Shown one piece after another: positions 1 through 42,511 of a stretch of 42,935 bases of DNA; the first letter of the stretch is position 1; each line of letters begins with the position of its first letter. The translations under genes were made by a program, and so were the position numbers. A model generated the notes under the pieces. That model did not search any database, was not told the origin of the DNA, and saw only the letters and a program-made list of their open reading frames with translations. Source of the stretch: a virus (lineage: Duplodnaviria > Heunggongvirae > Uroviricota > Caudoviricetes); the IMG/VR virus record IMGVR_UViG_2529292907_000021; one strand, 5' to 3'.

Positions 1-732
1 ACGGCGGTCAGAGAAAACTGGCAGTGGAAACCCGCGGTGGCGTACTGCCGCTATGCCGATGATTTTGTCCTCATCGTCAAAGGCACCAAAGCACAGGCGG
101 AAGCCATCAGGGAGGAGTGTCGGGGTGTGCTCGAAGGCAGTCTGAAACTCAGGCTGAACATGGATAAGACTAAAATCACCCATGTTAATGACGGCTTTAT
201 CTTTCTGGGGCACAGGATCATTCGCAAACGCAGTCGTTATGGCGAGATGCGAGTGGTCTCAACGATCCCGCAGGAGAAAGCCAGAAACTTCGCCGCATCG
301 CTGACAGCACTGTTATCAGGCAACTACAGTGAAAGCAAAGTCGATATGGCTGAACAACTCAACCGAAAACTGAAAGGCTGGGCCATGTTCTATCAGTTCG
401 TTGATTTTAAGGCCAAAGTCTTCAGTTATATCGACCGTGTCGTGTTCTGGAAGCTGGCTCACTGGCTGGCCCGCAAATACCGTACAGGTATCGCTTCCCT
501 GATGAGGTGGTGGTGTAAATCACCGAAACCGGGTCAGAGCAAAACGTGGGTTTTATTTGGTAAAACCAATCACGGCAAGCTCAGCGGCGAAATACTGTAC
601 CGGTTGGTGGGGCAAGGCAAGAAGCTGTTCCGCTGGCGGCTACCCGAAGGTAATCCCTATCTGAGGACGGAGACCAGAAACACGTATACATCGCGCTTTA
701 CAGAAGTGGCAATGGCGTTCGCCAGCATTTAA
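1..732 (+). CDS. Group II intron-encoded reverse transcriptase/maturase, C-terminal fragment (5' partial, continues upstream of window)
   Basis: Translation TAVRENWQWKPAVAYCRYADDFVLIV... contains the RT domain YADD motif followed by a basic maturase/DNA-binding-like tail; no stop from base 1 to 732. Confidence 0.8.
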   Translation, partial: TAVRENWQWKPAVAYCRYADDFVLIVKGTKAQAEAIREECRGVLEGSLKLRLNMDKTKITHVNDGFIFLGHRIIRKRSRYGEMRVVSTIPQEKARNFAASLTALLSGNYSESKVDMAEQLNRKLKGWAMFYQFVDFKAKVFSYIDRVVFWKLAHWLARKYRTGIASLMRWWCKSPKPGQSKTWVLFGKTNHGKLSGEILYRLVGQGKKLFRWRLPEGNPYLRTETRNTYTSRFTEVAMAFASI

Positions 733-737
733 ATGGA

Positions 738-771
738 GAGCCGGATGCGCTGAAAGGTGCACGTCCGGTTC
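738..771 (+). ncRNA. Group II intron catalytic domain V hairpin
   Basis: 34-nt hairpin with AGC triad near the 5' base of the stem and a GAAA tetraloop, immediately downstream of the IEP stop codon. Confidence 0.7.
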
Positions 772-794
772 GGGGAGGAGAGGCAGGGAAATAG

Positions 795-1295
<501 letters not shown>

Positions 1296-1337
1296 GTTCA
1301 CAGATAAAACACTCTCCAGGAAACCCGGGGCGGTTCA

Positions 1338-1554
1338 CATTGGAAATTGGCGTGGTCACATTCCTGTTTCGCCCTACCCACAACCCAACGATATCAAGTT
1401 GCTCACCCTGCGCAGAGTCCAGATCGAACTTGCGAAGCATGTCAGATGTTACGCCGGAGATGTCAGTGAAAGGTCGGGTTATCAGGTCAATGTGTTGCTG
1501 GAAGAGTGGTTTAGTGACGTGATAGTTCGTTATCAGCTCAGTGTATTTACTCAT
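1338..1554 (-). pseudogene. Phage tail protein (gene following baseplate J, Mu gp48/DUF2313-like position), N-terminal ~72 codons only; truncated by the IS insertion
   Basis: ORF 1102..1554 starts MSKYTELITNYHV... directly after the baseplate J gene with a 4-nt overlap; beyond 1337 the frame runs antisense through the IS, so only the first ~72 residues are phage-derived. Confidence 0.5.
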
Positions 1555-15093: not shown

Positions 15094-16257
15094 TTATTGG
15101 TTGCGTTTCCAGAAATCGGCGTTGATTTTGTTCAGCTCAGCCGGGGACATAGGGCCGCGAGCGCGATCACCAGTTGGTTTGCCAGATGGCGGGGTGATCC
15201 GATTTTTGGCTTTGTTCAGTTCCAGCGCGCCGCTGAATACCGCGTCCACCTTGGCTTTCGGCACCTTGTCATAGTCCTGAATGCCAAATGACTTGAGGTA
15301 TGTGCTGTCGCCGGTACGCATCGCGTGATTCAGTACCTGACGCTTCAGGCCTTTGTCGCCACTAGGCTGGAAGCCTGGACAGATGATCTCCGCGTCACCG
15401 ATGAGGTTGCGCTTATACGCCGCATCTCCGGTTACCTTCGCATCTTCTTCTGCGTCTTCATCACCGGTTTTCTTATCCAGATCGGTTTCTTCGTCGGTCG
15501 TGGTCTTCTGGTCTGCCGGCAACGCGGTAGCCTGAGAAGGCACGTTCATGTTGATAGTTAACCCGGGGATCGAACTCATACCGTCTGACGGCATATCGGG
15601 AGCTTCATCTGCAAGCTTCGCCAGCGCATCTTCATCTTTGGTGCGAATGGCATTGGCCAGCTTCTGAAACCAGTTCTGCTGTTTCATGTTGCTTCCTTTG
15701 GTTGATGGGGCTGAATCCCCTATGGCACATCGGGAACCAGCCCGCCCGCGGTCGATACCGACGGCCAGATGGTTGCCTGTGATTTGGTGTTGTTTTCCCT
15801 TGCCGGGCGAGAGCTGCTTATAGAGCGCGTCGTATCCGCAGCTGACATCGGTCAGACCAGCCTCGATTGCGTCGATTGCTTCCAGGCGCTTAACCAGCAC
15901 GTCGGCAATGAGCAGGTCTGCTTTATCGCCTGTGCCGCGCCTGACGTTCTGAATATGACCGTGGGCCAGTTCGGAATAGTTGGTGGGGTTAACGAAAAGG
16001 ATGCCGCCACCAGCGTCTTCTGGGTGCCCCAGCGTGACGGCGACGCCCTCAAAGCTCGCCATCGTTTCAGGAGAGAACACCTCATCTTCCGTTCGCCAGA
16101 CAGTGACGGTACCGCTCGCGTCGGGCTCAAGGTCGATTTCTTCCGGCAGATAGACCTGAGATCCCGTTCTGGCAATCGGCACGTCCTTGCAGAGCAATGA
16201 GCCGTCCGCCATGCGGAACCGGGTTTCCCCGAGCCTGGTCTCAAAAAAGTATTTCAT
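15094..16257 (-). CDS. Prohead scaffold/protease-like protein
   Basis: 387-aa ORF with a highly acidic central/C-terminal region (DEETDLDKKTGDEDAEEDAK) typical of scaffold proteins; located between head morphogenesis and capsid genes. Confidence 0.45.
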   Translation of the reverse strand: MKYFFETRLGETRFRMADGSLLCKDVPIARTGSQVYLPEEIDLEPDASGTVTVWRTEDEVFSPETMASFEGVAVTLGHPEDAGGGILFVNPTNYSELAHGHIQNVRRGTGDKADLLIADVLVKRLEAIDAIEAGLTDVSCGYDALYKQLSPGKGKQHQITGNHLAVGIDRGRAGSRCAIGDSAPSTKGSNMKQQNWFQKLANAIRTKDEDALAKLADEAPDMPSDGMSSIPGLTINMNVPSQATALPADQKTTTDEETDLDKKTGDEDAEEDAKVTGDAAYKRNLIGDAEIICPGFQPSGDKGLKRQVLNHAMRTGDSTYLKSFGIQDYDKVPKAKVDAVFSGALELNKAKNRITPPSGKPTGDRARGPMSPAELNKINADFWKRNQ

Positions 16258-16319
16258 GGGTTACCTGCTGAATTGCGGGCAAATAAATATCCTCCGGCAT
16301 AGCCGGAGGTTTTTCAAAT

Positions 16320-17035
16320 GCGCCTATAAGGCTCTCTTACCAGCCGCGCCCTAACAGGCGCACACGATCTGACATTTGCATCCAACTTCGTTACTTACGG
16401 CCCGTAAACGGGCTGCCCGGATAGGGAATCGATAACTGCTCTCCCATTTTATCCTCTTCAAGCTGGTGCTTTATGTAATCCTGTATCTTCGCCGTGTTCT
16501 TACCCACCGTATCGACGTAGTACCCTCTGCACCAGAACTCCCTGTTCCTGTATTTGAATTTCAAATCACCAAACTGCTCGTAAAGCATCAGACTGCTTTT
16601 CCCTTTCAGATATCCCATAAAGCCGGATACGCTCATTTTGGGCGGGATCTCCACAAGCATATGGATATGATCTGCACAGCATTCAGCTTCAAGAATCCGT
16701 ACGCTTTTCCACTCGCACAGCTTTCTCAAAATACTGCCTATTGCTCTACGTTTCTCTCTGTAGAACACTTGTCTTCGGTATTTTGGCGCAAAAACTATGT
16801 GATATTTACAGTTCCATCGGGTGTGCGCTAAGCTCTTTTCGTTCCCCATTGGGACCCCCTTTTGATTTCTTGTTTGACACTTGCAGTTGCCAGACCGCAA
16901 GGTGTTTTAACAAATCAAAAGGGGTTTTAATAACTGGCTCAAAGCTGAAAGCTTTCCGGAACCCCCAGCCTAGCTGGGGGTTTTCTGTGCACAATAAAAA
17001 GGCCTGCATAAGCAGGCCTCTTTCTCAGACTAGAA
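16320..17035 (-). mobile_element. IS200 insertion sequence (IS200/IS605 family), boundaries approximate
   Basis: Contains the tnpA gene plus the characteristic left-end terminator hairpin (AGGCCTGC-TTAT-GCAGGCCT followed by TTTTTATT on the element strand) and a second hairpin (ACCCCCAGC-TAG-GCTGGGGGTT) preceding the tnpA RBS; a further hairpin lies near the right end (~16285-16315). Confidence 0.7.
16391..16849 (-). CDS. tnpA: IS200 transposase TnpA (HUH/Y1 transposase)
   Basis: Translation MGNEKSLAHTRWNCKYHIVFAPKYRR...HIHMLVEIPPKMSVS...REFWCRGYYVDTVG is the hallmark IS200 TnpA sequence; start placed at the internal ATG with AAGGGGG RBS. Confidence 0.85.
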   Translation of the reverse strand: MGNEKSLAHTRWNCKYHIVFAPKYRRQVFYREKRRAIGSILRKLCEWKSVRILEAECCADHIHMLVEIPPKMSVSGFMGYLKGKSSLMLYEQFGDLKFKYRNREFWCRGYYVDTVGKNTAKIQDYIKHQLEEDKMGEQLSIPYPGSPFTGRK

Positions 17036-17228
17036 ATCCACGTCGCCTCAACTCGACAAGAATTGAATCGATAGCACCGTGGATGATGTCAGTGTTGTAA
17101 TCCTGCGAATTTCCTGACTGATAAATATCATCAAGCAATTTGCGATTGTGCCTTAAGCTGTCAATAAGTCGTGCGTTGGTAAGTGCCATGATGGGCCTCC
17201 TTGAATTATAGTTATGAGCATTGCTCAC
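17025..17228 (-). CDS. Small hypothetical protein (67 aa); C-terminus may be altered by the IS200 insertion
   Basis: ORF between the head morphogenesis stop and the IS200 left end; its last codons overlap the IS200 terminal hairpin. Confidence 0.3.
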   Translation of the reverse strand: MSNAHNYNSRRPIMALTNARLIDSLRHNRKLLDDIYQSGNSQDYNTDIIHGAIDSILVELRRRGFLV

Positions 17229-17292
17229 TCTTATTTATCAATTCACGGAGGGAAATCGCTGGACTTAACAGAAATTTTTTTAGCATTTTGTG

Positions 17293-18045
17293 CTATTTAC
17301 GCGGAGGCGGCACTTGAATCTCCGGCCAGCATTTGCAGTTCGGCAGGCATCCGGCATGCCCGGTCATTTCGTCCAGAGTGGGTGGGTTATCCCAGCGCAC
17401 GAACTTATTCCTCATTTTGTAGTGGGAATCGCGGGTACCAGCGCCTTCAATGCGCCACCAGTAACCTTCTGAGCCAATCGACTCGGCGCGCGCCTGGGTG
17501 AGTGCTGTGGTAGCCCTGCCGATTTCGGTGCGGGCGATCATCTTCGCGCGGCTCTCCGCTACGTCGCCGGACTCCATAATCATCCGGTAGAGCGCGTCGG
17601 GGCGTTCACCGTTGATGACAGCTTCCATTGCACGCGCCTGGATGTCACGGACGCGATCGGCAGCCTCCAGCGGCAGAGACTTAATCAGCTGCACCTGGCG
17701 GGACACTATGTCCTGTGCCACGAACCCCACCGGCGTATTGCCGACGACATCTCGCAGCCCCTCGGAGATATCCTGCGATACCGAGCGCCACTGGCTCCAC
17801 TCCTCCTGCTCAACCTGCAGGAACATGCGTTTAGCGACCCGGTCGGCCCAGTCGTCAATCAGCAGGGAGTAATCCATCAGCCGGGCGTTAACCTGCTCGG
17901 CGCTCGCTTCCGAACCATCGTAGGAACCAGTTACTATCGCGCCGCACTGACGCGCTATCTCCTGTAGGCTTTTCTGATACTGGCGCTCCGATTTGCGGCG
18001 GAGGTTCGGTTTCAGATTCAGCCTCCTCCCATTCTGCTTTGGCAT
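17293..18045 (-). CDS. Phage head morphogenesis protein (MuF / SPP1 gp7 family); start uncertain
   Basis: C-terminal region ...MIARTEIGRATTALTQARAESIG...FVRWDNPP...GCLPNCKCWPEIQVPPP matches the MuF-type C-terminal motif; the ORF extends to 18138 but overlaps the portal gene, so the internal ATG at 18045 is used. Confidence 0.6.
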   Translation of the reverse strand: MPKQNGRRLNLKPNLRRKSERQYQKSLQEIARQCGAIVTGSYDGSEASAEQVNARLMDYSLLIDDWADRVAKRMFLQVEQEEWSQWRSVSQDISEGLRDVVGNTPVGFVAQDIVSRQVQLIKSLPLEAADRVRDIQARAMEAVINGERPDALYRMIMESGDVAESRAKMIARTEIGRATTALTQARAESIGSEGYWWRIEGAGTRDSHYKMRNKFVRWDNPPTLDEMTGHAGCLPNCKCWPEIQVPPPRK

Positions 18046-24340: not shown

Positions 24341-24372
24341 AATAAAAAGCCCAAGGCGTTCCTCGGGCTTGA
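24341..24372 (-). terminator. tR'-like intrinsic terminator on the minus strand downstream of the Q-like gene
   Basis: Minus-strand hairpin AAGCCCGAGG-AACG-CCTTGGGCTT followed by TTTTATTT, ~70 bp downstream of the Q-like stop. Confidence 0.4.
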
Positions 24373-24438
24373 AAACTTATTTACTGCCAGCGCATACAAC
24401 AATGGCACAATATCAGATTTACACGAAATATATGCTAA

Positions 24439-25128
24439 TTAGTTCATTTCTGCAATACCTTGCTGATAATTTGCTGCCTTTTGTTGTGAACGTGATCGCG
24501 AAATATGATGTAGCGACTGGGAATCGAGTCCCTTATACAGGCTGATCATCGCATCGTAATGTTCCACGTAATTCTGAGACCAGTTTGTTTTGTTAACGCC
24601 CACCAGCGTAGCGAGATCACCATAATGATACGGATCCTTCCCGGATAACTCGCCTTTCACATCCTGCGCCGCCAACCATATCAACTGCCGTAAACGGTCA
24701 ATGGTCTTCTTCGCCACCTTTTTTCCGGCCAGATGCTCGCAGAATTTCGACCACGCCCACTGAGTAATCAACACCTGATTATCCCAGCGCACATTCTCGC
24801 TGTAGTTCCATAGCAGCCAGGCCTTCTGGTGTTCTTCGAGCGTCATCAGTGCACGGCGCCACGATGAGGTGGAGTATTCCACCGGCTGCACCAGTGGAAT
24901 ATGCGCCCCCTTGGCATGCGACTGTTTGCCCGGTATTGGTGGATTATCCAACGTAATCATTTTCCCGGTTACCTCATCCATTACGCGAGGCTTCTTCCTC
25001 TTAAAGGTGCCAGTATCGAACTGCGCATTCTCCAGCCAGGCCATTAACTGCCCTTTCGTCGCACCACTTAAATCAGCGGTGGCCACCATCAGCTGCTGGC
25101 GCACGTATTCGAGAAATTGAGTATTCAT
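24439..25128 (-). CDS. Late-gene antiterminator Q-like protein
   Basis: 229-aa ORF between NinG and the lysis cassette, followed by a promoter/terminator-like region; assignment is mainly positional. Confidence 0.45.
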   Translation of the reverse strand: MNTQFLEYVRQQLMVATADLSGATKGQLMAWLENAQFDTGTFKRKKPRVMDEVTGKMITLDNPPIPGKQSHAKGAHIPLVQPVEYSTSSWRRALMTLEEHQKAWLLWNYSENVRWDNQVLITQWAWSKFCEHLAGKKVAKKTIDRLRQLIWLAAQDVKGELSGKDPYHYGDLATLVGVNKTNWSQNYVEHYDAMISLYKGLDSQSLHHISRSRSQQKAANYQQGIAEMN

Positions 25129-40917: not shown

Positions 40918-41190
40918 ATGGCCAAGCTTCTTAATCTGCAGGAATGGGCGAATTCGACTTATTCAACCCCGCCGTCTCTTTCAACACTTCGCCGCTGGGC
41001 GCGGGAGGGGCGCATTTACCCTGCTCCGGAACTTCACGGAAAAGAATATAAGGTTCAGCCTGACGCCATCTATGTGGATCCGAGCAAAAAGAACCTTCGT
41101 CCCAAATCAAAACGCTTAGCGCTGCCAACTGGCGGCACTCTACTGGAGAGACTGACTCATGGCGAAAAGGCCAGTACGTTACGACGCTAA
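40918..41190 (+). CDS. xis: Excisionase (lambda Xis-like)
   Basis: N-terminus MAKLLNLQEWANSTYSTPPSLSTLRRWAREGRIYPAPELHGKEYKV closely parallels lambda Xis (MYLTLQEWNARQRRPRSLETVRRWVRECRIFPPPVKDGREY); overlaps the int start. Confidence 0.65.
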   Translation: MAKLLNLQEWANSTYSTPPSLSTLRRWAREGRIYPAPELHGKEYKVQPDAIYVDPSKKNLRPKSKRLALPTGGTLLERLTHGEKASTLRR

Positions 41191-42244
41191 CCTGCCCCGT
41201 AACCTGACCTATCGTAAAAGAGACAGGCTTTATAGCTGGCGAAACCCGATTACCGGTCAAGAATTATCTCTTGGCCGGATCGACAGAAAGGACGCCATTT
41301 CTCAGGCCATCGAGGCCAACAACTACATCGACCAAAATTACCTTCCGTCAGCGCTGCTTGACCGCATAAAGGAAACACCAACATTTACGGTGAAAGCGTG
41401 GCTCGAGCGCTACGAAGTAATTCTTGAGCGAAGAGAATTGAAGCCCAACACGATGAAGGTCAGGCGCAATCAGATCGCCACTATCAGTGATGAATTCGGA
41501 CGTATGCCGCTATCGGCGGTCAGCACAAAGGACGTATCTACTTTCCTGGAGAGTTACATACTCTGCGATAAGAAGAGCATGGCCTCTGGCCTGCGATCGG
41601 TATTGTTGGATATTTTCAGGGAGGCGATCGTCGAGGGACATATTGAAAGGAACCCGGCAGAGCCGACAAGAACGCCGACACCAAAAGTGAAGCGTGAGCG
41701 TCTTTTGCTCGAGCAGTTTGAGATAATAAGGGATGCCGCAACTGCTCATTCTGGATGGGCTGCAAATGCATGTGACCTGGCGCTGGTCACCGGGCAGAGA
41801 AGAGAGGACGTATCGCTGTTCAGATTCAGCGATATCAGGGATGGAAGATTGTTTGTCACACAGGAAAAGACAGGTCACAAATTGGCGTTGCCACTTGATT
41901 TGCGACTGGACTCTGCTGATTTGGTATTGCAGGATGTTATCGACCGTTGTCGTAAAAACAACCCGTCAGACTTCATGCTTTATTCTGCGGTAAGGCGTGG
42001 TGGCCGGAAGCCAGGTCCGTTAACTCCGGACGGAATCACCCAAGCATTTTCTGATATCAGGGATTCTACAGAGTTAAAGTTTGGCCCCAACCCTCCCCCG
42101 TTCCATGAGATCAGGAGCTTGGCGAGCAGGCTCTATGAAAGGGAGCGCGGAGAGGATTTCGCACAGAGACTGCTGGGGCATAAAAATTTAACAATGACCA
42201 AAAAATACCTGGACGCACGCGGTGCAGAATATGTTATGGTTTAG
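41159..42244 (+). CDS. int: Tyrosine integrase (lambda Int-like)
   Basis: 361 aa; N-terminal arm-binding region and a C-terminal catalytic region with ...HEIRSLASRLYERERGEDFAQRLLGHKNLTMTKKYLDARG matching lambda Int (...HELRSLSARLYEKQ...AQHLLGHKSDTMASQYRDDRG). Confidence 0.85.
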   Translation: MAKRPVRYDANLPRNLTYRKRDRLYSWRNPITGQELSLGRIDRKDAISQAIEANNYIDQNYLPSALLDRIKETPTFTVKAWLERYEVILERRELKPNTMKVRRNQIATISDEFGRMPLSAVSTKDVSTFLESYILCDKKSMASGLRSVLLDIFREAIVEGHIERNPAEPTRTPTPKVKRERLLLEQFEIIRDAATAHSGWAANACDLALVTGQRREDVSLFRFSDIRDGRLFVTQEKTGHKLALPLDLRLDSADLVLQDVIDRCRKNNPSDFMLYSAVRRGGRKPGPLTPDGITQAFSDIRDSTELKFGPNPPPFHEIRSLASRLYERERGEDFAQRLLGHKNLTMTKKYLDARGAEYVMV

Positions 42245-42320
42245 ACAGGATATGGAAATTTCGAGTAATTTTCGTGGGATTTCGTGAAAGCACCGAAAAA
42301 ACCCAATGAAAACAGATAGA

Positions 42321-42424
42321 TAAAAAGAGACCGAATACGATTCCTGTATTCGGTCCAGGGAAATGGCTCTTGGGAGAGAGCCGTGCGCTAAAAGTTGGCA
42401 TTAATGCAGGCTTAGTTGCCTTGC
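42321..42424 (-). ncRNA. sdsR: SdsR (RyeB)-like Hfq-dependent small RNA, ~104 nt
   Basis: Minus-strand sequence begins GCAAGGCAACTAAGCCTGCATTAATGCC... and ends in hairpin GACCGAATACAGGAATCGTATTCGGTC plus TCTTTTT; a sigma-S-like -10 (CTATTCT) lies ~7 nt upstream of the inferred 5' end; sequence matches my recollection of SdsR but was not database-verified. Confidence 0.5.
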
Positions 42425-42511
42425 CCTTTAAGAATAGATGACGACGCCAGGTTTTCCAGTTTGCGTGCAAAATGGTCAATAAAAAGCGCGGTAGTCATCA
42501 GCTTAAATGTT

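Follow-up and report, generated by a model that had tools for sequence, protein, structure and literature searches.

We analysed a 42,935-nucleotide stretch of viral DNA (the window) and find that positions 16282..16992 on its minus strand, judged by their sequence, are an intact IS200C of the IS200/IS605 family, IS200 group, inserted right behind an intrinsic terminator of the phage. The best explanation as a whole, to which we assign a probability of about 0.8, is that the element is a recent, strain-specific arrival in a Q-regulated, E. coli-type prophage of myovirus type integrated beside ryeA/sdsR. IS200 is a common insertion sequence, and its insertion was an ordinary event with probably little harm to the phage; this reading removes a false lead for the window: IS200C would be a harmless recent passenger, and the cut made by an IS3/group II intron unit would be the better candidate for the cause of a cryptic state. 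The siting of IS200C explains how such elements ride in functional phage genomes.

The element is complete, as the original prediction had proposed, and is 711 bp long; in the orientation of tnpA it begins GTGCACAGAAAACCCCC and finishes GGAGGATATTTATT. Its tnpA gene occupies exactly 16391..16849 (minus strand) and encodes a Y1 HUH transposase of 152 aa that matches the full Pfam profile PF01797 (Y1_Tnp; profile positions 2-121 of 121, E 3.8e-38) as well as phrog_2577 (transposase), and in which the HUH motif and the catalytic Tyr (DHIHMLV, DYIKHQ) are conserved in alignment to PDB 2ec2, 2f4f and 2a6m. Over its 711 bp the element is 100% identical to the copy in L060, and it shows 98-99.5% identity to copies in E. 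coli genomes whose transposases RefSeq annotates as 'IS200C family'; it is from this annotation of near-identical copies, not from ISfinder curation, that the name is taken. IS200/IS605 Y1 HUH transposases move their elements by single-strand 'peel and paste', and elements of this family create no target duplication. The copy has in common with IS200C/IS200 of Salmonella and E. coli and with IS1541 of Yersinia the 152-aa Y1 HUH tnpA, the length of ~710 bp, the right-end hairpin, and the lack of inverted repeats and of a target duplication. Nothing about this copy is structurally new; new is only its place, between head-morphogenesis genes in a prophage of this type.

The exact ends, which had been named as a point to check, were defined by exact comparison with the empty site in six related contigs and with other junctions (~160 left and ~50 right), and they correct the span of 16320-17293 given at first, whose start loses the right-end hairpin and whose end takes in 300 bp of phage sequence. 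Both ends are conserved between copies and the flanks are divergent; the right end is constant, finishing GGATATTTATT in every copy, with unrelated sequence beyond it (~50 right junctions). The left-end hairpins said to be characteristic of IS200 are borne out by Rfam and by folding. RF01405 (STnc490, the left end/5'UTR of IS200) matches 16859..16982 on the minus strand with 146 bits against a gathering score of 56, over model positions 1-124 of 124, and its alignment together with the fold places a perfect hairpin with a 10-bp stem at 16960..16982 (minus strand; IS nucleotides 11-33), in agreement with the 'nts 12-34' reported for the IS200 left-end hairpin (PMC4513863). A structured left-end segment at 16856..16924 (minus strand), indicated by the RF01405 structure and by the fold of 16850..16996 on the same strand (z = -4.17), has the form described for IS200 (PMC4513863). 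At the other end, a hairpin at 16291..16309 (minus strand) is followed by ATATTTATT, the final bases of the element. The termini (GTGCACAG... and ...ATATTTATT) do not form an inverted repeat; each end has its subterminal hairpin, and GAAAA(A) stands just 5' of the hairpin at both ends. A terminator scan missed the left-end hairpin because no T-run follows it in the sense direction, and folding was used for verification. A longer form of the element, suggested by megablast ends 20-40 bp past the true left end, was rejected, the extra bases being look-alike terminator stems and T-runs of different target sites.

The insertion is precise. Six IS-free public contigs (L189-L194) match the window flanks at 99.95-100% over ~6 kb once 16282..16992 is removed, and their empty site is GCAGGCCTTTTTATT|TGCCCGCAATTC (reading on as GCAGGCCTTTTTATT|TGCCCGC). 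These are draft and metagenome contigs, since the region of the small 54-aa ORF next to the element has no match in 5,426 complete E. coli genomes. The strain of assembly GCA_000249595.2 (contig AIFV01000014.1) is an example of a natural carrier of the prophage without the element. Comparison of the window with the empty site of the six contigs reveals no target duplication, and a search for one, which had been proposed as a check, is misdirected for a family that makes none. The TTTATT found on both sides of the element was considered as a target-site duplication and dismissed, since the right end of every copy includes this hexamer, independently of the flanking sequence. As the flanking TTTATT equals the last 6 nt of IS200C, the boundary is ambiguous by up to 6 nt at this locus alone, and its register is fixed only through comparison with other copies.

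Genes on both sides were identified by Pfam and phrog matches, and they confirm the predicted site between a MuF-like head morphogenesis gene (17293..17877, minus strand; PF04233, phrog_324; 194 aa in the gene calls of the six contigs) and a DUF2213 head maturation protease/scaffold-like gene (15094..16257, minus strand; PF09979, E 1.5e-37; phrog_530, head maturation protease). The right end of IS200C is 24 nt upstream of the start of the DUF2213 gene, and those 24 nt, including the ribosome-binding site, are identical to the IS-free relatives. On the other side is an intact moron-like ORF of 54 aa (17025..17189, minus strand; SD AAGGAGG; phrog_35409 over positions 1-54 of 54, E 2e-35), which stops 32 nt before the element and whose exact protein is present on at least 24 contigs. 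A 67-aa GTG-start form of this small ORF (17025..17228) was also considered and discarded; its look-up found nothing, whereas the 54-aa ATG form with its strong SD is on record. The overlap between the insertion and the 3' end of a 67-aa ORF, noted in the original prediction, exists insofar as an ORF at 16806..17009 (minus strand) overlaps tnpA, but this spurious ORF is a junction artefact that begins in the phage terminator, crosses the left end of IS200C and has no Pfam match, and the real 54-aa gene is untouched. With the flanking ORFs and the ribosome-binding site the same as in the IS-free relatives, the insertion is intergenic, breaks no gene and inactivates no essential one.

The native intrinsic terminator of the phage (16993..17023, minus strand) has the form AAAGAGGCCTGC-TTAT-GCAGGCCTTT followed by TTATT, with a 12-bp stem that leads into UUUUUAUU (fold centroid -20.5 kcal/mol, z = -3.6), and the IS200C junction is directly 3' of its T-run TTTTTATT. 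Its sequence is identical in the six IS-free contigs, analogous terminators occupy the equal place in L003 and L004, and a terminator is kept at this intergenic spot in every IS-free relative examined, including relatives with different morons. The terminator scan missed the native terminator, probably since the extension of the stem consumes part of the T-run, and it was verified by folding.

Among 160 distinct left junctions of IS200 in many taxa, 136 have a flank made of a hairpin and a T-run in the same orientation as the element, with the foot of the hairpin 3-9 nt before the junction and a left-flank consensus of T T W T T at positions -5 to -1; among controls, the combination occurred in 0/41 cases in sequence 2 kb away and in 3/800 shuffled flanks. 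Tandem copies in L049 and L174 each lie directly after the right end of another copy. Given the co-orientation with hairpin and T-run at 136/160 junctions, the co-orientation of IS200C with the late operon probably stems from target choice. An excess of terminator-like sequences directly before ISs has been reported, with the strongest effect for IS200/IS605 (PMC13548323).

The position and orientation of IS200C would thus be dictated by a preference for sites just past a GC hairpin and T-run, in co-orientation with them. By analogy with IS608, such a site would resemble the right end of IS200 itself, where a hairpin is followed after ~9 nt by TTATT, and under the guide/cleavage-site rule of IS608 the GAAAA(A) 5' of each hairpin would pair with the T-rich cleavage site. 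We lean, though only slightly, towards the view that IS200-group elements actively home to intrinsic terminators, in which the hairpin and T-run in single-stranded DNA would mimic the right end, the T-run would pair with the GAAAA guide by the left-end hairpin, and integration would take place 3-9 nt past the stem in a fixed orientation. If true, this would account for three things: that IS200 copies, almost without exception, lie between genes, share the orientation of the gene before them and stay transcriptionally silent; that they can settle in phage operons behind moron or tR2-type terminators and leave the phage alive; and that terminators are enriched upstream of IS200/IS605, an enrichment surveyed statistically without a mechanism (PMC13548323). 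Like IS200, the elements IS608 and ISDra2 make no duplication on inserting, do so 3' of a specific short motif and carry subterminal hairpins (PMC2806898, PMC5027513). A further likeness is the short candidate guide 5' of the hairpin foot, which in IS200C would be GAAAA(A), at both ends and facing T-rich cleavage sites. The targets of IS608 and ISDra2 (TTAC, TTGAT) are not linked to hairpins, whereas IS200 junctions have an extra upstream hairpin 3-9 nt away, and guide pairing in IS200 is something that we infer, unlike that in IS608 and ISDra2. Bacterial group IIC introns likewise settle right behind intrinsic terminator hairpins, with a fixed orientation, a siting that does little harm and in which they receive little read-through transcription; they do so by retrohoming of an RNA intron, a wholly different mechanism from the single-stranded DNA transposition of IS200 by its Y1 transposase.

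The accumulation behind terminators could also reflect survival alone, if IS200 inserted nearly at random in AT-rich DNA and only the harmless copies past terminators persisted, in which case the co-orientation observed here would be a 50:50 accident. Insertions past terminators should indeed be neutral to selection, IS200 transposes too seldom to yield de novo insertion spectra (PMC4513863), and an ISME J 2026 analysis takes the terminators before the elements to be a niche in which transposase expression stays limited (PMC13548323), but selection by itself gives no account of the 3-9 nt register, of the near-invariant T T W T T, of the co-orientation in 136/160 junctions or of insertion right behind the right end of another copy, and members of the family are known to insert 3' of a short sequence that is specific (PMC2806898, PMC5027513). 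We regard such survivorship as quite improbable. Hardly credible at all is the idea that IS200C has been retained here for a use, be it regulatory RNAs (art200, 5'tnpA) or insulation between the moron and the head genes: although RNAs derived from the IS200 5'UTR regulate host genes in Salmonella (PMC5435999, PMC12594629) and the left end is intact in this copy, the element is missing from 6/6 closely matching prophage contigs among the matches listed, its sequence is identical or near-identical to many copies elsewhere, and the locus has no sign of specific conservation. For active homing to terminators, the junction survey suggests a simple model of target recognition in an element whose transposition is very hard to study, and the survey is useful for annotation as well: with it, the ends of IS200 can be set exactly, junction ORFs recognised as spurious and orientations predicted.

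The holin, endolysin, terminase, portal, MuF, capsid and tail genes are all downstream of the late antiterminator Q on the minus strand, in the layout of the annotated GZ2408P prophage. The Q gene (24439..25128, minus strand; PF06323 over positions 2-219 of 220, 316 bits) is full-length and equal in length to the gene annotated Q in E. coli GZ2408P. A putative tR'-like terminator lies ~70 nt downstream of Q (24347..24370, minus strand), its presumed function resting on terminator scan, sequence and fold; a consensus scan called no pR' promoter near this hairpin. Efficient read-through of terminators is established for lambdoid Q proteins and is assumed for the Q of this prophage. Since a native terminator stands at the insertion point in all IS-free relatives examined, late transcription should already be terminator-resistant there. 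The late transcript would be made by a Q-modified polymerase that is obliged to pass the native terminator at the spot of IS200C in any case, and the hairpins brought in by IS200, with ~700 nt of RNA that is poorly translated, would be expected to cause little polarity on the capsid and tail genes.

Escherichia phages Lambda_ev058 (LR597651) and PhiR63_2 (PV340574) carry IS200C at 98.4-98.5% identity to the copy here, in the interval from ren to ninB, right behind lambda tR2 and upstream of Q and all late genes. As in the window, these copies are inserted after GCAGGCCTTTTTATT of an intrinsic terminator with an identical stem sequence, are co-oriented with an antiterminated operon and disrupt no gene; the lambda site differs in lying in the early-right, N-antiterminated operon, whereas the copy here belongs to the Q-dependent late operon and has the moron and the head protease gene as its neighbours. 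The suffix 'ev' marks phages that come from faecal viromes and were plaque-purified on an indicator strain (PMC6969025), and it is on this naming rule that plaque formation by Lambda_ev058 rests, the main text of that paper making no mention of ev058. Taken as plaque-forming by its name, Lambda_ev058 would tolerate IS200C behind tR2, by an analogy in which antitermination is N-mediated and not Q-mediated.

The original prediction held that the left-end terminator of IS200, facing the direction of the late operon, may choke the expression of downstream capsid and tail genes unless Q-modified polymerase reads through, and would help to make the prophage cryptic. The direction was stated correctly, as tnpA and the late genes are all on the minus strand, and those parts of the IS200 literature that treat the left end (PMC5435999, PMC4513863) document its hairpin as a bidirectional terminator that stops ~85% of the upstream transcripts impinging on it with unmodified polymerase, and describe hisD984, the first IS200 insertion described, as polar. 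The right-end hairpin is terminator-like in the late-operon direction too, and poor translation of tnpA would leave ~700 nt of RNA exposed to Rho. No coding sequence or ribosome-binding site is altered, however, and a native terminator is already present 1 nt upstream of the element, in all IS-free relatives examined, in a prophage with a full-length Q; moreover, a lambda phage with an 'ev' name tolerates IS200C upstream of Q (PMC6969025). The presence of Q, the native terminator in the IS-free relatives and the tolerance suggested for Lambda_ev058 therefore make strong polarity on the late genes unlikely, and we consider it unlikely as well that a polar IS200 helped to make the prophage cryptic. 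Some polarity may persist, given the ~85% stop that PMC5435999 gives in its treatment of the left-end hairpin.

The further suggestion that an IS3 truncation and the IS200 insertion together point to a cryptic prophage stands in its first part, the disruption by IS3 being real, and finds no support in its second, IS200C inactivating no gene. An IS3-family element with a group II intron occupies 1..1341 (plus strand; Pfam GIIM/RVT_1 and rve) and is not part of IS200C; Rfam Intron_gpII matches 736..822 inside it. The unit ends at ~1341, abutting a baseplate-wedge gene (1102..1554, minus strand) that it cuts and in which DUF2612 is matched only at positions 1-74 of 181 within the window. To go by these matches, the prophage is probably defective owing to the cut in the baseplate-wedge gene and not to IS200C. 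The IS3/intron unit itself shares 99.9% identity with ltrA/IS3 units of ETEC genomes.

The minus strand of 16282..16992 holds a complete IS200 of 711 bp, and the original prediction of such an element, with tnpA (the transposase gene) at 16391..16849 and left-end hairpins, is borne out by profile, Rfam and folding results. The tnpA ORF (16391..16849, minus strand) encodes 152 aa that match Pfam Y1_Tnp (PF01797) across the whole profile (E 3.8e-38), as well as transposase families in PHROG, and alignment to the solved IS200/IS605 transposases 2ec2, 2f4f and 2a6m places both the HUH motif (DHIHMLV) and the catalytic tyrosine (DYIKHQ). On the same strand, Rfam RF01405 (STnc490, IS200 left end/5'UTR) is matched end to end at 16859..16982 with 146 bits, where the gathering score is 56. 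Folding gives a perfect 10-bp hairpin at the left end (16960..16982, IS nt 11-33), a long stem-loop burying the tnpA Shine-Dalgarno sequence (16856..16924) and a right-end hairpin (16291..16309), all features known for IS200 (PMC4513863). E. coli copies at 98-99.5% identity carry the RefSeq label 'IS200C family', one IMG/VR contig (L060) has a copy 100% identical across the full 711 bp, and at the sequence level the element has every character of an IS200C member. In the literature STnc490/art200 is antisense to the tnpA 5'UTR; the RF01405 match here lies on the tnpA-sense strand and takes in the left-end hairpin and the Shine-Dalgarno stem-loop, and the model appears to represent a sense-strand structure.

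The ends were placed by deleting 16282..16992 from the window and comparing the remainder with six closely matching prophage contigs (L189-L194), all six of them IS-free among the matches listed. Identity is 99.95-100% over ~6 kb, gapless at the junction, and in each contig a 54-aa ORF is followed by 56 nt and then the DUF2213 gene. The empty site reads ...GAGAAAGAGGCCTGCTTATGCAGGCCTTTTTATT|TGCCCGCAATTCAGCAGGTAACCCATG and the occupied site, with the element in brackets, ...TTTTTATT[GTGCACAGAAAACCCCC ... CCGGAGGATATTTATT]TGCCCGC..., so that the interval first proposed, 16320..17293, clips the right-end hairpin and adds 300 bp of phage DNA. A target duplication, which the original prediction had suggested looking for, was not found between the window and L189-L194. 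The TTTATT of the flank is the same as the final six IS bases, which makes the register ambiguous from this locus alone; it is fixed because all of ~50 right ends compared terminate in GGATATTTATT, with unrelated DNA beyond, and because left junctions mostly start with GT (136/160 distinct junctions at +1 and 143/160 at +2). The repeat thus consists of constant right-end bases. Judged from sequence, the insertion is a recent, ordinary IS hop, new as a locus only.

The 67-aa ORF said to be overlapped by the element (16806..17009, minus strand) does overlap it, but is no phage gene: it starts within the phage terminator and reads across the IS left end, and is therefore a junction artefact. The genuine small gene is the 54-aa ORF (17025..17189, minus strand), which has a Shine-Dalgarno sequence AAGGAGG, matches phrog_35409 over its full length and stops 32 nt ahead of the IS200; its exact product is recorded on many contigs. 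Providencia phage PSTCR3 encodes a homologue of this moron-like product at 64% identity, left unannotated there, and 5,426 complete E. coli genomes contained no match to the small-ORF region.

Minus-strand gene order, in the direction of transcription, is Q, holin and GH108 endolysin, small and large terminase, portal, MuF, the 54-aa ORF, [IS200], DUF2213 (a head maturation protease/scaffold-like gene), cement protein, major capsid protein, and myovirus tail and baseplate genes, which agrees with the proposed position of the IS200 between MuF and DUF2213, co-oriented with the late genes. E. coli GZ2408P has an annotated prophage with this layout; it is 90% identical to the window prophage and sits at the same site, yebY-pphA. 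The lambda-type integrase of the window prophage (41159..42244) adjoins the SraC/RyeA and SdsR/RyeB sRNA locus (42318..42462). Gene content between MuF and DUF2213 varies, as in a 'moron' slot: prophages of the GZ2408P and NCTC11023 types carry other small genes there, and in each a GC hairpin and T-run stand directly ahead of the conserved ATTGCCCGCAATTCAGCAGG and the start of DUF2213. The native terminator in the window is AAAGAGGCCTGC-TTAT-GCAGGCCTTT followed by TTATT (folding: centroid -20.5 kcal/mol, z = -3.6), and the IS200 starts right after its last T. The DUF2213 gene (15094..16257, minus strand) is 387 aa in the window, is called as 387 and 372 aa in L189 and L192, gapless against the window, and is 421 aa in the near-identical prophages L190, L191, L193 and L194, by an in-frame 102-nt indel inside the gene; both alleles are found among IS-free prophages.

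We surveyed all exact matches to the left-end hairpin in IMG/VR and one-genome-per-species contigs and read the flanks, obtaining 160 distinct left flanks from Escherichia, Yersinia, Vibrio, Serratia, Phytobacter and assorted MAGs, among others. IS200 is associated with terminators: 136/160 have a GC-rich hairpin with its foot (stem base) 3-9 nt from the IS and a T-rich tail reaching the junction, invariably co-oriented with tnpA, with a consensus at -5 to -1 of T T (T/A) T T. Controls gave such a hairpin and tail in 0/41 sequences 2 kb away and in 3/800 shuffled flanks. A statistical report of the association already exists, in which terminator-like sequences are enriched directly ahead of ISs, above all those of the IS200/IS605 family (PMC13548323), and Yersinia IS1541 is placed between pheL and pheA, where other enterics have the attenuator terminator (PMC3082878).

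The right end of IS200 itself seems, from its sequence context, to act like a target site, since in two head-to-tail pairs (L049, at 3455 and 4165 in minus orientation, and L174, at 2158 and 2869) the second copy lies exactly after the right end of the first (hairpin and ATATTTATT). GAAAA(A) stands directly 5' of the hairpin foot at both IS200 ends. Elements of the IS200/IS605 family go in 3' of a particular short sequence, and in IS608 a tetranucleotide at the corresponding place base-pairs with the sequence that is cleaved and targeted (PMC5027513, PMC2806898). By analogy with IS608 we infer that the A-run would act as a guide selecting a T-run, and that a terminator would mimic the right end. 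The wider interest lies in this sharply defined homing to terminators, with putative right-end mimicry and an A-run guide. Given the preference for a co-oriented hairpin and T-run, the co-orientation of the window copy with the late operon is best read as a result of target choice. One recurrent site, with left flank TGACAGCCCGCCGGTTCAGGCGGGCTTTTTT, occurs in eight enterobacterial prophage contigs (L011, L025, L033, L037, L047, L051, L054, L066); the right flank, read in L025, encodes a protein starting MAAVKISGVLKDG, reminiscent of how the lambda side-tail-fibre gene (stf) begins. If it is stf-like, this would be another post-terminator site within a phage late region.

The left-end hairpin was correctly named as a terminator, being reported as bidirectional and as halting ~85% of impinging transcription (PMC5435999, PMC4513863), and in a normal operon a worry about polarity is for that reason reasonable. 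Since every IS-free relative examined has an intrinsic terminator at the equivalent spot in the late gene string, the polymerase that expresses the capsid and tail genes must, on this comparison, already be terminator-resistant. Polymerase modified by a lambdoid Q passes intrinsic and Rho-dependent terminators alike over tens of kilobases. Q is intact in the prophage (24439..25128, minus strand; PF06323, 316 bits), with a tR'-like hairpin ~70 nt downstream. Directly 3' of Q, 24347..24438 (minus strand) has an AT-rich stretch followed by a 10-bp GC hairpin and TTTTTATTT, plausibly a pR'/tR' unit giving a short leader RNA; the promoter scan called no promoter there. An antiterminated operon also appears to tolerate IS200C in two deposited coliphage genomes, Lambda_ev058 (L001 3001..3747) and PhiR63_2 (L002 3001..3727). 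In both, the element lies directly behind lambda tR2 (flank GCAGGCCTTTTTATT, with the same stem as in the window); ren and ninB flank it, it points along the pR transcript, and Q, and with it all late expression, comes downstream. Plaque purification from infant faecal viromes on indicator strains is on record for phages bearing the 'ev' suffix (PMC6969025). The 114-bp 'hypothetical protein' that both records annotate over the left junction is spurious. The 24-nt spacer from the IS200 to the DUF2213 ATG, including the RBS, is the same as in IS-free relatives. Because of the native terminator, Q, the tR2 precedent and the unchanged RBS, we expect polarity from the IS200 to be modest at most, which argues against the poor capsid and tail expression originally proposed. 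The observation of the insertion is thus confirmed with corrected coordinates, and its functional interpretation is only partly supported.

The prophage would not be expected to be cryptic on account of the IS200, and that part of the suggestion is not supported; the IS3 truncation gives the better case for a defective prophage. An IS3-family element carrying a group II intron occupies 1..~1341, the window starting inside the intron, with the C-terminal part of ltrA at 37..732, intron domains V-VI at 736..822 (Rfam RF00029, Intron_gpII) and an rve ORF at 849..1295. The baseplate-wedge DUF2612 gene (1102..1554, minus strand) abuts this unit, is interrupted after ~78 codons and keeps only profile positions 1-74 of 181, the view ending at the window start; within the window, the unit is seen from the sequence to disrupt an essential tail gene. 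It is 99.9% identical to units of ETEC chromosomes and plasmids.
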